A DNA stretch of 49,713 bases, taken from NCBI GenBank assembly GCA_910585335.1, contig CAJUCU010000004.1, forward strand, positions 2,828 to 52,540, read 5' to 3'. The stretch is from an uncultured Bacilli bacterium. GTDB taxonomy: Bacteria > Bacillota_I > Bacilli_A > RF39 > UBA660. A program made the translations under genes and the position numbers. Positions 14,078 through 29,401 of this stretch are shown here, piece after piece; position 1 is the first letter of the stretch; each line of letters opens with the position of its first letter. The notes beneath the pieces were generated by a model. It saw nothing but the letters and a program-made list of their open reading frames with translations, made no database searches and was not told the origin of the DNA.

Positions 14078-14296
14078 TTAGTCCATAATTTCTAAGCTAT
14101 TAGTCAAAATATCACTATAACTAAAGGACTTAATTCTACTGAAATCATCTGTAGTTTCAATAATAAAGATAGCAGGATAAATCTCAACTATTTTTCCAGA
14201 AAATTCCTCTACTTGATTACGACTACCATTAAATTTGAATTTATGTTCTTGATTCGCTTGATTCTCTATCATTTTACGCACTTTTTCTATTGTCAT
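14078..14296 (-). CDS. veg: Veg protein (biofilm formation stimulator family)
   Basis: 72 aa. FSGKIVEIYPAIFIIETTDD...SFSYSDILTNSLEI parallels B. subtilis Veg (recalled). It lies next to yabG as in Bacillus. Confidence 0.8.
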   Translation of the reverse strand: MTIEKVRKMIENQANQEHKFKFNGSRNQVEEFSGKIVEIYPAIFIIETTDDFSRIKSFSYSDILTNSLEIMD

Positions 14297-14799
14297 CTTG
14301 GATACCCCACATACATCGTCCCCATCGTGATAATTCCACCAATGCCATCACTACCATACTTCGTTTTCTCAATCAGAGAGATTAAATCAATGCTTTTATT
14401 CTTTTCAGAAAGTGCAATACTAGAAGCAATAATGGCAGGATCTAATGCATGAATATTAATCCGTTTCGGACTAGAAGCAAAATTAGCACCTGCTTTAATC
14501 AGTTCTTCATAATTAGATTGACAAGCACCTGCAATCACAATCAGTTTATCTTGACTCTTCTCATACTCACGAACCTGTTGAACTGCCTTAATAAAACTAG
14601 GGCTATTTTGATAACTGCTCTCTTTTCGTTTATTATAAGAATCATGTCCTGTAATAACAACAATATCAGGATGATAATCATGAACCCACCCAAGTATGTG
14701 TTCATGTACTTCTTTTTCGTTCATCTTAACACCATAGGCTTTGACATTCAAATTTTTATAAAACTTCATACACCGATCAAGATAATCAGAGTCTCCATC
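14293..14799 (-). CDS. yabG: 3' segment of the split sporulation protease gene yabG (catalytic part)
   Basis: The frame is open from 14811. From the shared DGD codons it reads DGD-SDYLDRCMKFYKNLNVKAYGV...DIVVITGHDSY...LIVIAGACQSNYEELIKAGANFASSP.RINIHALDP. These match the YabG (U57) conserved blocks. The ORF-track entry 14293..14769 is the part downstream of an internal ATG. Confidence 0.85.
   Translation of the reverse strand, partial: DGDSDYLDRCMKFYKNLNVKAYGVKMNEKEVHEHILGWVHDYHPDIVVITGHDSYNKRKESSYQNSPSFIKAVQQVREYEKSQDKLIVIAGACQSNYEELIKAGANFASSPKRINIHALDPAIIASSIALSEKNKSIDLISLIEKTKYGSDGIGGIITMGTMYVGYPR
14792..14799. repeat. Left copy of the 8-bp junction core TCTCCATC (attL-like)
   Basis: Identical to 29127-29134. 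On the coding strand it reads GATGGAGA and lies inside the Asp-Gly-Asp codons of yabG. Confidence 0.8.
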
Positions 14800-14860
14800 T
14801 GCTGACGCTTGTTAAATAACTAAATATAAAATTTACCTTTCTGATAAATATAGATTTAAT

Positions 14861-14899
14861 AAAGATAAGTAGACCTGGTTATATAGTTATCTTATCTTT
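14861..14899 (-). terminator. Hairpin downstream of the recombinase genes (possible weak terminator)
   Basis: AAAGATAAG ... CTTATCTTT: a 9-bp stem with a 21-nt loop and no strong T run. Confidence 0.25.
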
Positions 14900-14927
14900 C
14901 ATCAAATAAATTGAAACAAAATACTTC

Positions 14928-16490
14928 TTAATATAATTTAATTTCTTTTGATTTCTCTACTCCAAACTTAAATGAAATCTCTATAGTATGATCTTTATAA
15001 ATAATAAATTTATCTATCAAGTCCTTTATAACATCATAAATTAAATTATCGCTACTGATAAACTGATTATATTTTTTTAATAATTCTTGTTTTCTTAATG
15101 TCTCATTTTTTGACTCTATAACTTTCTTTAATAGCCTTTCAGATTGCTCTTTGAGTAGAGATTCTGCTTCCTTTTTTTCGATAAAATCAGCTAAGCTAAT
15201 TTCTCCAGTTGTTTTTTTCAAATATAAGTTTCTAACATTAGTATTATGAAGTTCTATCTTTTCTTTTAACTTAGCAATCTTTAAATTAGTCCTTTCCGCT
15301 TTTAATAACCTCTTTGCTGCTTTTATAGTTATCTCATCTTTATCAGTATATGAGTGAATTAATTTTTTGACTGTATTAGTAACTATTAATTGAAGCCTAG
15401 AATCTGCAATGGTCCTATTCGGACAACGTTTCCTGTCATCTACTCTTGTACATGCAAAATGATATTTAATATGACCATTTTCTCTTTTTCTTCTACAAAC
15501 AGTCATAATATTGCCACATTCACCGCATATTACTAATTTACTAAATAAACCATTATAATCGTTTTTTTCTTTTCGCTTCATCGTTTTTAATTGATTATTT
15601 GCCTCATCAAACAACTCTTCTGTTATGATTCCAGGATGACAATGATTAATTGTTTCTCTATCTCTTATGGGAATAAAATCTCTTTTCTTCTGATGATAAT
15701 TCCTCTTAGAAGATTTTCTTTTCACAATTTTACCTGTATATGTTTTATTTTTTAGTATTCGATAAATAATTTTATCTGACCAGTCAAAATAATATTTTTT
15801 CTTCTCACTTTGGGTCATATTCATATAAATAATAGGTGGTAGTATCCCATCTTTATTTAATTCAGCAGCAACCTCACTTCTTGTCCTTCCACTTGCTATT
15901 TCAGAAAATATTCTTTTTACAATACTTGCTGAATACTCATCAATTTCTAATGTCCTTCTGCCATTTTCCTTTTTAATTCTATAACCATAAGGTGGTAGGG
16001 GCCCAATAAATTGTCCCTCCTCTGTTTTTGATTCTGCTACCTGCTTTCTTTTTGTTGATACCTCTTTCACATACCGATCATTGATAAGTGCTTTTATTTC
16101 CATCATAATTTGTTGTTCACAAACATCAACACTATCACTATCAAACGAATCATTGATAGCAATATATCTAACATTATTTCTAGGAAAATACTCTCCTATA
16201 TAATAAGCAGTTTCTATAAAGTTCCTACCAAGTCTAGACATATCTTTTGTTATAACAGTTCCAACAAGCCCACTTTCTATATCATCTTTTAACTCTTCAA
16301 ATGCTGGTCTATCAAAACTCGCTCCAGAATAACCGTCATCAACATATTCTTTATCAATATGAAGTCCCTTTTCCATAGCATAAGACTGAATGATTGCTAA
16401 CTGATGATAAATACTGGAAGAAAATTCTTTTAACTTATTAATATCTTCTTGAGATAGTCTTCCATAAGCAACAGTCAATTTATTAACCAT
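14928..16490 (-). CDS. Large serine recombinase (downstream member of a coupled pair)
   Basis: Resolvase catalytic domain (VAYGRLSQED, DDGYSGASFDRP, VITKDMSRLGRN), a recombinase domain, the zinc ribbon CGECG...C..RVDDRKRCPN and a C-terminal coiled coil. Confidence 0.92.
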   Translation of the reverse strand: MVNKLTVAYGRLSQEDINKLKEFSSSIYHQLAIIQSYAMEKGLHIDKEYVDDGYSGASFDRPAFEELKDDIESGLVGTVITKDMSRLGRNFIETAYYIGEYFPRNNVRYIAINDSFDSDSVDVCEQQIMMEIKALINDRYVKEVSTKRKQVAESKTEEGQFIGPLPPYGYRIKKENGRRTLEIDEYSASIVKRIFSEIASGRTRSEVAAELNKDGILPPIIYMNMTQSEKKKYYFDWSDKIIYRILKNKTYTGKIVKRKSSKRNYHQKKRDFIPIRDRETINHCHPGIITEELFDEANNQLKTMKRKEKNDYNGLFSKLVICGECGNIMTVCRRKRENGHIKYHFACTRVDDRKRCPNRTIADSRLQLIVTNTVKKLIHSYTDKDEITIKAAKRLLKAERTNLKIAKLKEKIELHNTNVRNLYLKKTTGEISLADFIEKKEAESLLKEQSERLLKKVIESKNETLRKQELLKKYNQFISSDNLIYDVIKDLIDKFIIYKDHTIEISFKFGVEKSKEIKLY

Positions 16491-28889: not shown

Positions 28890-28921
28890 AACCGAAAACC
28901 ATCCCTTCTACGTAGTGACAT

Positions 28922-28949
28922 ATTATAACACAAAAAAAAAATTTTTCAA
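28922..28949 (-). promoter_or_regulatory. Candidate sigma-A promoter of the cohesin/protease operon, with a T10 tract in the spacer
   Basis: Minus-strand TTGAAA, 16-nt spacer (AATTTTTTTTTTGTGT), TATAAT with an extended TGT, about 30 nt upstream of the start. Confidence 0.5.
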
Positions 28950-28975
28950 GTCTTTTCTGCTAATTACTATAATTT

Positions 28976-28988
28976 CAGTTACTTAAGC
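28976..28988. repeat. Internal second copy of the att-arm motif CAGTTACTTAAGC
   Basis: Exact 13-nt direct repeat of 29109-29121. The next 13 nt match 7/13. Confidence 0.7.
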
Positions 28989-29086
28989 ATACATCTGCCT
29001 CTATAATAAATGCAAAACTTTTAGAAAAATTTGTCTTTTTTTATACTTCTAGAGCACTTTTCATAATTTATAATTTTATTATTTTC

Positions 29087-29401
29087 TTATTTTATAATAG
29101 TTTCTTCACAGTTACTTAAGCGATTATCTCCATCAATATGAAGAATCTTGCCTGGTAAATAAAAATATTCACTTCGATCCAAACTTAAATAATTACGATT
29201 CTTTTCAATAATAGCTTGATCTGCTTCTTCTATATTATCATCCAGTGTTTCTATTTTTAAATCGTCCAAAAGGCTATCGGCATAAAGACGTAAATCAACT
29301 CCCTTTAATATTGCAACATTCCCCTTGATTTCCATCACTTTAAAATAAATATCATTATTATGAGAATTCCTACTAACAATATCACCAATTTTTAAATTCA
29401 T
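29087..29401 (-). CDS. yabG: 5' segment of split yabG (92 native codons plus 12 element-derived codons and a stop)
   Basis: MNLKIGDIVSRNSHNNDIYFKVMEIKGNVAILKGVDLRLYADS...YFYLPGKILHIDGD parallels the B. subtilis YabG N-terminus (MQFQIGDMVARKS...MPGKVLHLDGD, recalled). After DGD it reads NRLSNCEETIIK*. Confidence 0.85.
   Translation of the reverse strand: MNLKIGDIVSRNSHNNDIYFKVMEIKGNVAILKGVDLRLYADSLLDDLKIETLDDNIEEADQAIIEKNRNYLSLDRSEYFYLPGKILHIDGDNRLSNCEETIIK
29127..29134. repeat. Right copy of the 8-bp junction core TCTCCATC (attR-like)
   Basis: Identical to 14792-14799 and lies in the DGD codons of the yabG 5' segment. Confidence 0.8.

Follow-up and report, generated by a model that had tools for sequence, protein, structure and literature searches.

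The stretch of DNA analysed here (the window, 49,713 nt from an uncultured Bacilli bacterium) carries the mother-cell sporulation gene yabG, which encodes a spore-coat protease, in two parts, which are separated by an insert of 14.3 kb with five open reading frames (ORFs), all on the yabG strand. The minus-strand ORF at 29401..29087 is 104 aa long and encodes YabG residues 1-92 (...LPGKILHIDGD), followed by 12 element-encoded codons (NRLSNCEETIIK) and a stop, and the minus-strand frame at 14799..14293 reads DGDSDYLDRCMKFYKNL...VITGHDSY...IAGACQS...GYPR* and runs to the normal YabG C-terminus. The break was thus located at codons D90-D92 of yabG. The octamer TCTCCATC, which reads GATGGAGA on the gene strand, is present at 14792-14799 and again at 29127-29134, with a spacing of 14,335 bp. 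The coordinates of all features of the locus are collected in Table 1.

When the insert was deleted together with one copy of the repeat (14,335 bp), a joined ORF of 774 nt and 257 aa was obtained. The joined YabG was matched by the Pfam profile PF05582 in a single stretch over profile positions 1-280 of 280 (E 1.9e-88), and by the NCBIfam equivalog model TIGR02855 with 278.6 bits, which is above the cut-off of 270.4; the alignment to orthologues was free of gaps. The initial annotation, which had been made from the sequence alone, had claimed that yabG is broken after residue 92 by 12 foreign codons and a stop, that both junctions carry the same 8 bp, and that deletion would restore a 257-codon gene in frame, and all of these statements were confirmed by the ORF coordinates, the translations and the profile matches. 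In the joined protein the GHD motif starts at residue 140 and the GACQS motif at residue 180, and the counterparts of these residues in C. difficile YabG (His, Asp and Cys) are required for activity (PMC10681294). Based on the domain layout described for YabG, with an SH3-like domain, a linker and a CheY-like catalytic domain (PMC10681294), yabG is interrupted where the linker ends, at the first strand of the catalytic domain, so that neither half should work alone. The 8-bp repeat by itself may be due to chance, but its in-phase placement exactly at both ends of the homology cannot.

Table 1. Features of the interrupted yabG locus, in window coordinates and in the direction of transcription
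Feature	Position	Strand	Description
yabG 5' part, residues 1-92	29127..29401	(-)	ORF and Pfam match; SH3-like domain, linker, first strand of catalytic domain
Junction yabG 5' part/element	29127..29134	(-)	8-bp repeat GATGGAGA; element-side arm with TTAAGTAAC at about 29106-29114
Sigma-A-like promoter before cargo	28922..28949	(-)	TTGAAA, 16 nt, TATAAT, with extended TG; 11/12; consensus match
Cargo ORF 1, 323 aa	27918..28889	(-)	signal/transmembrane segment, domain without family match, low-complexity linker, C-terminal transmembrane segment
Cargo ORF 2, 3202 aa	18400..28008	(-)	signal peptide, dockerin-like module, Ig-like repeats, Peptidase_M26 region
Terminator-like hairpin and T run, between cargo and recombination module	18329..18381	(-)	folding energy in comparison to shuffles
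Sigma-E-type (mother-cell) promoter match	18300..18328	(-)	TCATTAA-N14-CATAAACT; ends 16 nt upstream of the small42 ATG
42-aa acidic ORF (small42)	18155..18283	(-)	conserved; candidate recombination directionality factor or accessory protein
Sigma-A-like promoter between small42 and LSR-A	18117..18145	(-)	TTGTAA, 17 nt, TATAAT; not in all species
LSR-A, large serine recombinase, 527 aa	16490..18073	(-)	catalytic-serine motif YLRLS
LSR-B, large serine recombinase, 520 aa	14928..16490	(-)	motif YGRLS
Junction element/yabG 3' part	14792..14823	(-)	repeat 14792-14799 and conserved 24-nt element-side arm 14800-14823, TTAGTTATTTAACAAGCGTCAGCA
yabG 3' part, residues 93-257	14293..14791	(-)	catalytic GHD (H141, D142) and GACQS (C182)

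The split is genuine and is not an artefact of assembly. The exact 104-aa N-terminal fragment was found on 43 public contigs and the exact 158-aa C-terminal fragment on 45, from many independent samples, and the public contigs which span the insert are 98.4-100% identical to the window. Two groups of strains carry the element, with flanking genes that differ by 0-0.02% and by 1-1.7%, respectively. The exact joined YabG protein was absent among 15 billion public proteins, and its best match was only 88% identical. With the split fragments on 43 to 45 contigs in two strain groups and the joined protein not found, the insertion looks fixed in its species. The organism is known from metagenome assemblies alone, which would by itself leave room for a chimera or a mis-join in a metagenome-assembled genome (MAG), but the same junctions recur in independent assemblies from many samples and several host animals, and they lie at the identical yabG codon in different species, so that this explanation is effectively refuted.

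Uninterrupted copies of the gene, which the initial annotation had proposed to look for in related genomes, were found as well. The closest YabG proteins in a database of 5.8 billion clusters share 83-88% amino acid identity with the joined product; they are intact and have a length of exactly 257 aa. The contigs of the closest relatives (L001-L004; the L numbers are our labels for the loci compared) carry an uninterrupted yabG and thus represent empty sites, with the gene order ksgA-yabG-veg-spoVG-yabP as in the window, and the joined window gene could be aligned to the intact genes of the relatives with no gaps and with 81% nucleotide identity.

The part of the insert next to the yabG 3' part consists of small42 and the genes of two large serine recombinases, LSR-A and LSR-B. 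The start of LSR-B overlaps the stop of LSR-A by 1 nt, an arrangement of translational coupling, and the two proteins are 33-35% identical to each other. Each of them contains the Resolvase, Recombinase and Zn_ribbon_recom domains according to Pfam, together with a coiled coil judged by eye, and the nearest solved structures were those of TnpX and SprA, at family level only. The ratio of nonsynonymous to synonymous divergence (dN/dS) was 0.09-0.32 for LSR-A and 0.14-0.39 for LSR-B, and in all seven species compared both proteins are full-length and keep the R-L-S motif. The initial annotation was therefore right in describing two intact large serine recombinases, and the decayed recombinases in relatives which it had named as the sign of a dead insertion were not what was seen across the seven species, where both genes are full-length and under purifying selection.

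A profile hidden Markov model (HMM) built for small42 found the ORF in each of the 17 loci of the clade, and in every case it directly precedes LSR-A. No family in Pfam or PHROG matched it, and a word-indexed protein search returned only 10 close relatives. The AlphaFold2 model shows an extended, strand-like N-terminal part and a helix at residues 20-41, with a mean pLDDT of 77. From its size, acidity, position and strict co-occurrence with the recombinases, small42 is a candidate directionality factor. Weak matches of the small42 HMM were also seen at L103 9742-9894 (E 0.12) and L028 9819-9950 (E 0.46), in both cases directly upstream of recombinases which are 35-37% identical and stand outside the yabG clade, and small42-type ORFs may accompany this lineage of recombinases more widely. 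In two contigs from IMG/VR (L174 at 5942-6190 and L175 at 3801-4043), LSR-B and the yabG junction are separated by a remnant, about 90 aa long, of a third serine recombinase; both 'viral' contigs represent the integrated state in the chromosome and not excised circles.

The recombination site was then compared between carriers of the element. The 24-nt element-side arm at the yabG 3' part, when 10 species were anchored at the core, reads approximately TTAGTTAYTTAACAARGGTCAGCA followed by GATGG, and its mean pairwise identity was 70%, whereas the adjoining 46 nt of non-coding DNA reached 36%, which marks the arm as the footprint of a site under selection. In the window the two junctions agree over all 8 bp of the core; in L015 they agree only at positions 1-2, 4 and 7-8, and in L096 at positions 1-4 and 6-7. 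The sole dinucleotide that is common to both junctions in all three loci is the first GA (29133-29134, in codon D90). The crossover is probably at this first GA rather than over the whole repeat, on the assumption that the elements of the window, L015 and L096 are all functional; the last GA of the core was also considered and was rejected, as L096 is mismatched there. The attP site reconstructed with the first GA at its centre has a dyad of the form GTTAYNTAA, 12 nt, GA, 12-13 nt, TTANRTAAC. Joining at this position rebuilds ...HIDGD... in frame in each of the three loci, and for the window the predicted attB junction is ...CTTCATATTGATGGAGACTCTGATTATCTTG... and the predicted attP junction is ...AACAAGCGTCAGCAGATGGAGATAATCGCTTAAGTAAC....

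The sigma-E consensus of B. subtilis is ZHATAXX-14 bp-CATACAHT. A degenerate form of this pattern had a single exact match in the 49.7-kb window, directly upstream of small42, in comparison to 0.29 matches expected, and at least one match was obtained in 24 of 100 shuffled sequences; only four weaker matches were present on the same strand. In the related loci a sigma-E-like motif was found at the same place with 15 of 15 positions in 7 of 13 loci and with 12-14 positions in the rest, and the intergenic DNA nearby is otherwise diverged. For those loci in which the best match of the scan lay elsewhere, a similar but weaker motif could be read just upstream of small42. The form of the motif in the family is TCATTAA-N13/14-CATAAAyT. 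It lies directly after the terminator hairpin of the cargo, which has a folding energy of -16.8 kcal/mol and a z-score of -7.0 (none of 200 shuffles folds as well), and by such a strong hairpin between cargo and module the sigma-E-like promoter would be insulated from the cargo. The sigma-A-like promoter found before LSR-A in some species could supply recombinase for integration. The only other sigma-E-type match near a gene start, with 14 of 15 positions, lies at window 12744-12773 on the minus strand inside yabP and about 40 nt upstream of the start of yabQ. For yabG itself, a gene that sigma-E and sigma-K are described as controlling in the mother cell (PMC10681294, PMC10747680), no convincing match to a promoter of either type was seen by eye in the region upstream of the gene (29402-29500).

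To see how far the element is distributed, LSR-A was used in an alignment scan of one genome per GTDB species, and then of metagenome contigs and IMG/VR. Relatives of LSR-A with 45-86% identity were found in MAGs labelled 'uncultured Bacilli bacterium' from the gut of mouse, rabbit, roe deer and human. The metagenome contigs yielded mostly distant recombinases (30-35% identity), with L094-L097 as the only new relatives, further relatives came from IMG/VR, and recombinases below about 40% identity to LSR-A stand in unrelated contexts in Clostridia. Ten other loci have an LSR-A at least 45% identical and a readable downstream context (L014, L015, L016, L019, L020, L022, L024, L095, L096 and L097), and in all 10 of them a yabG 3' part beginning with residue 90 comes after small42, LSR-A and LSR-B, in this order. 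Their YabG proteins are only 54-70% identical to that of the window, which shows that the other carriers are different species. Two loci labelled 'uncultured Muribaculaceae bacterium' (Bacteroidota) were among the matches, L022 (CAYWFZ010000006.1) and L069; L022 is probably mis-binned, since its contig contains, along with the element, yabG and spoVG, two genes that belong to spore-forming Firmicutes.

The cargo differs from one element to the next. A giant M26 protease is carried by the elements of the window, L014 and L018, a GT2 glycosyltransferase, a kinase, a radical-SAM enzyme and a NUDIX hydrolase by L015, an NPCBM/F5_F8 surface protein by L096 and L022, an RHS-repeat protein by L020, and an EcoRI-type methylase, GmrSD and PemK by L019. 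Both junctions are visible in L015 and L096, where the element measures about 8.8 kb and about 11.4 kb, respectively. As read from these gene contents, the cargo is unrelated between elements while the module and the target codon stay constant. No phage-like genes were found among the five ORFs of the window insert by Pfam or PHROG, no match to the element was present in a collection of plasmids, and among phage recombinases the identity to those of the element reached 33% at most; on the latter two grounds the element is not a known plasmid or phage segment. By its gene content, the insert is classed as a non-phage integrative island and not as a prophage. Judged from sequence comparison, the element is a previously undescribed family, site-specific at yabG codon D90 (motif HIDGD) in uncultured spore-forming gut Bacilli.

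The state of the interrupted gene in the carriers bears on whether it is still used. In 9 of the 10 carrier species the yabG 3' part stays an open frame as far as the conserved GYPR terminus, and between carriers its dN/dS was about 0.15-0.25 at a synonymous divergence (dS) above 1. A permanently broken yabG should have decayed over such a distance, and the intact halves are thus a sign of function. The exception is L097 (UMIY01029371.1, about 8540-8560), where an extra C in ...GTAGTTACT[C]GGGCATGAC... causes a +1 frameshift at VVTGHD and no GYPR terminus is reached. Between the window and L014, the element genes had a dS of 0.39-0.51 (86-88% nucleotide identity), in comparison to 1.05 for the host gene spoVG and 1.48 for the yabG 3' part (67% nucleotide identity), and the nearest host relatives L001 and L004, in which the yabG 3' part is 90-93% identical at the amino acid level, have empty sites. 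The lower dS of the element than of the host genes, together with the empty sites in the nearest relatives, indicates that the island crossed species boundaries and came to lie at the same codon.

An independent split of yabG was observed in a MAG of Marinisporobacter sp. (L027, JAOARV010000065.1, 3137-7880), at about residue 213 (...SSPHRVL / IHCLDP...). The insert there is about 3.87 kb long and contains a single serine recombinase of 472 aa, the 7-bp repeat TACTAAT is present at both junctions, and the two halves can be joined in frame. Between yabG and veg the same locus contains another recombinase, which shares 38% identity with LSR-A.

With regard to the cargo of the window, ORF 2 contains an M26 region (IgA1-protease/ZmpB-like) with the zinc motif HEFEH at residue 2419, for which precomputed Pfam matches to M26_N and M26_C were available. 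A stretch of 13 nt (TGATAATAAGAAA), flanked by direct repeats of AAGAAA, is missing from the window at 28017/28018 and is present in all seven public contigs that cover the spot; in these contigs the ORFs of 323 and 3202 aa form one gene of 3500 aa, and the gene is apparently fused in L014, another species, as well. The cargo gene of the window is thus frameshifted by a 13-nt deletion, either as a strain variant or through an assembly error. The giant ORF also showed 77 differing positions in strains whose flanking 9 kb differs by 0-2 nt, and these differences cluster in the Ig-like repeat region, at window positions of about 22500-27000; recombination between internal repeats, diversifying selection and assembly collapse of repeats are possible causes. 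No cohesin partner for the dockerin-like module of the giant protein was detected, and a cohesin domain in the 323-aa ORF, which had been considered as such a partner, was dropped because it had no Pfam support even at E = 10. Placed behind a sigma-A-like promoter, the cargo is presumably made in growing cells, and the giant secreted M26/Zmp-like protein of about 3500 aa is a plausible factor for the host mucosa and a probable host-colonisation factor.

Taken together, these observations are best explained by an island which is excised in the mother cell by a sigma-E-driven module, whereby yabG is rebuilt, and which is kept in the forespore; we give this reading a probability of roughly 0.65. 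The cargo would be expressed from its sigma-A-like promoter in growing cells. After asymmetric division, sigma-E of the mother cell would transcribe the small42-LSR-A-LSR-B module, and the recombinases, probably jointly, would recombine the two junctions at the GA dinucleotide, with the 42-aa protein possibly steering them as a directionality factor. A circle of 14,335 bp would be released and yabG would be rebuilt in frame in time for coat maturation, and the island would be inherited through the forespore chromosome, in which it would be retained. In this scheme we infer the timing of excision, the cell type, the recombinase or recombinases that act, and the role of small42. The initial annotation had proposed that the strategy of skin and SPbeta is applied to yabG, of which the split, the in-frame repair and the presence of two recombinases stood, and the functional excision is for now plausible, in view of the conserved att arm, the sigma-E-like promoter, the purifying selection and the yabG halves that are intact in 9 of 10 species. 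Excision with reconstitution of the interrupted gene has been demonstrated for the C. difficile skin element, skinCd (PMC5025042), for gin (PMC5595907) and for yin, which lies in yabG (PMC10747680).

Several points weigh against this reading. Neither of the excised forms was found, as the exact joined YabG was absent from the 15 billion proteins and the predicted attP junction was absent from IMG/VR; this is weak counter-evidence, since metagenome assemblies would rarely capture DNA of the mother cell. The gene yabG is not essential for spore formation in B. subtilis or C. difficile, and because it is dispensable for sporulation, the selection for its repair may be weaker than that for the repair of sigK. 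The frameshifted yabG 3' part of L097 may belong to a decayed lineage or may be a sequencing error, and such a frameshift is to be expected where the insertion can turn into a dead end. The role given to small42 is a guess from its size, charge, position and conservation. The sigma-E promoter is only a consensus match, to a consensus which was borrowed from B. subtilis and C. difficile and may not be that of this lineage, and 0.29 matches to the pattern are to be expected over the window in a genome of 29% G+C. The implied leader would be about 8-11 nt long with the Shine-Dalgarno sequence at its 5' end, for which there is a precedent of a short leader in the sigma-E-dependent gene CD1234 for the recombination directionality factor (RDF) of skinCd, which starts upstream of its start codon by 14 bp (PMC5025042).

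The main rival is an active mobile element for which the conserved stretch coding for HIDGD is a safe landing site, with excision at a low or stress-dependent level in any cell and the repair of yabG as a by-product. Movement of the island between hosts, as seen in the dS of 0.39-0.51 for the element in comparison to 1.48 for yabG and 1.05 for spoVG and in the empty sites of L001-L004, agrees well with such an element, as does the sigma-A-like promoter before LSR-A in some species, and for yin the circles and the intact yabG were detected at all time points and not only during sporulation (PMC10747680). However, what is conserved upstream of the module, behind a terminator, is a motif of the mother-cell (sigma-E) type, the yabG halves are intact over a dS above 1 in 9 of 10 carriers, which requires that the joined gene is regularly expressed, and the element has no transfer genes of its own (none among its five ORFs). 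We consider this explanation unlikely on balance. A dead insertion, with yabG a pseudogene and the island no longer excisable, would account for the lack of an excised form in the public data searched, and the frameshift in L097, the remnant of a third recombinase in L174 and L175, the frameshifting deletion of 13 nt in the cargo gene of the window and the fact that yabG mutants of model species still sporulate could all be read in the same way. It is nevertheless hard to reconcile with recombinases, 42-aa ORF, att arm and yabG halves which are intact and under purifying selection across species, or with the 92 YabG codons of the 5' part, in which strains with flanking genes 1-1.7% apart differ by 1 nt at most, and it appears quite improbable.

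Beyond excision in the mother cell as such, a wider and rather doubtful proposal can be put forward, in which yabG would be a general landing pad, in uncultured gut Bacilli, for non-viral islands that swap their cargo. A hetero-complex of both recombinases (as for CcrAB) and a 42-aa mini-RDF would act under the control of sigma-E, and the terminal mother cell would discard the island so as to complete the spore coat, while the germ line would keep a payload for growth in the gut, such as the mucin/IgA-protease-like enzyme, the RHS toxin, restriction and toxin-antitoxin functions. If this proposal were true, then with yin and the Marinisporobacter insertion yabG would stand beside sigK as a recurrent target of several unrelated recombinase lineages.

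Elements that intervene in sporulation genes (skin, SPbeta, vfbin and gin) are a well-established class, whose members are parked in a gene used only in the mother cell and are cut out in this terminal cell. The element of the window has the features of the class, namely an interrupted mother-cell gene, large serine recombinases of its own, a short identical core and in-frame rebuilding of the gene. In the terminal mother cell, a large serine recombinase excises the skin element of B. subtilis (recombinase SpoIVCA) from sigK and SPbeta (SprA/SprB) from spsM. Similar to these, the window element is predicted to rebuild a mother-cell gene through a large serine recombinase. The key differences are that skin and SPbeta are prophages, in part defective, with a single recombinase, while the whole module here apparently stands behind a sigma-E-like motif. 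In the C. difficile skin element, the recombinase is CD1231 and the RDF is CD1234 (PMC5025042).

As an excision target yabG is not new, as yin, which splits yabG in C. botulinum V73, was published in 2023, and its excision, its circularisation and the restoration of yabG were shown experimentally (Douillard et al. 2023, PMC10747680). It is described as prophage-like and related to Caudoviricetes, with one recombinase adjoining the yabG 5' part and a 14-bp repeat, and was found in a single strain; the authors regarded it as unique, with no other yabG-disrupting element in public databases (PMC10747680). The two elements have in common the interrupted yabG coding sequence, a large serine recombinase and short direct repeats at the junctions. 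In comparison to yin by its published description, the window element has no phage genes, two tandem recombinases which adjoin the yabG 3' part and an 8-bp repeat, and, instead of being confined to a single strain, it has become fixed in its species and occurs in several species of uncultured gut Bacilli. Set apart in this way by the description of yin, the window element appears to be unrelated to it. A yabG element with two recombinases was not encountered in our search of the literature. What is new is a different, non-phage family with two recombinases that is widespread in uncultured gut Bacilli, with the crossover probably at the first GA, and the statement on the uniqueness of yin is corrected by this second, unrelated family and by the independent split in Marinisporobacter.

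The family is compact, with a non-viral module of about 3.4 kb, a site of roughly 50 bp, two coupled recombinases and a very small conserved partner ORF, and it makes a clean natural system in which to study how the work is divided between paired serine recombinases and how directionality is set, both of which are also questions for SCCmec. Through it, a developmental rearrangement of DNA in little-known spore-formers of the gut is also linked to a probable host-colonisation factor, the giant Zmp/IgA-protease-like surface enzyme. SCCmec of staphylococci is described as mobilised by two adjacent large serine recombinases, CcrA and CcrB (Misiura et al. 2013, as cited in PMC12286644). An adjacent pair of recombinases, a non-phage island that swaps its cargo and one conserved chromosomal site are common to both systems, while the target of SCCmec is the 3' end of rlmH (orfX), and SCCmec has no developmental role. 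LSR-A and LSR-B were also considered as orthologues of CcrA and CcrB, and this was rejected, as they scored 119 and 74 bits against the CcrB model with a cut-off of 900 (the NCBIfam equivalog cut-offs are 700-900).

The closest comparison is with gin, an element of 28.6 kb in gerE of B. cereus ATCC10987, which is non-phage and whose cargo varies, with genes for restriction-modification as one part of it (Abe et al. 2017, PMC5595907). Three recombinase genes are present in gin, with girA-girB in an operon, and only GirC and the small factor GirX are needed for the rearrangement, with recombinase expression specific to sporulation (PMC5595907). The absence of phage genes, the multiple serine recombinases, the variable cargo and a small accessory ORF, which in our case is a candidate, are features that both elements share. 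The window element differs from gin in that its target is yabG and not gerE, and in that it has exactly two recombinases, which are coupled and both conserved beside the att site. In style, the element described here is thus closest to gin.

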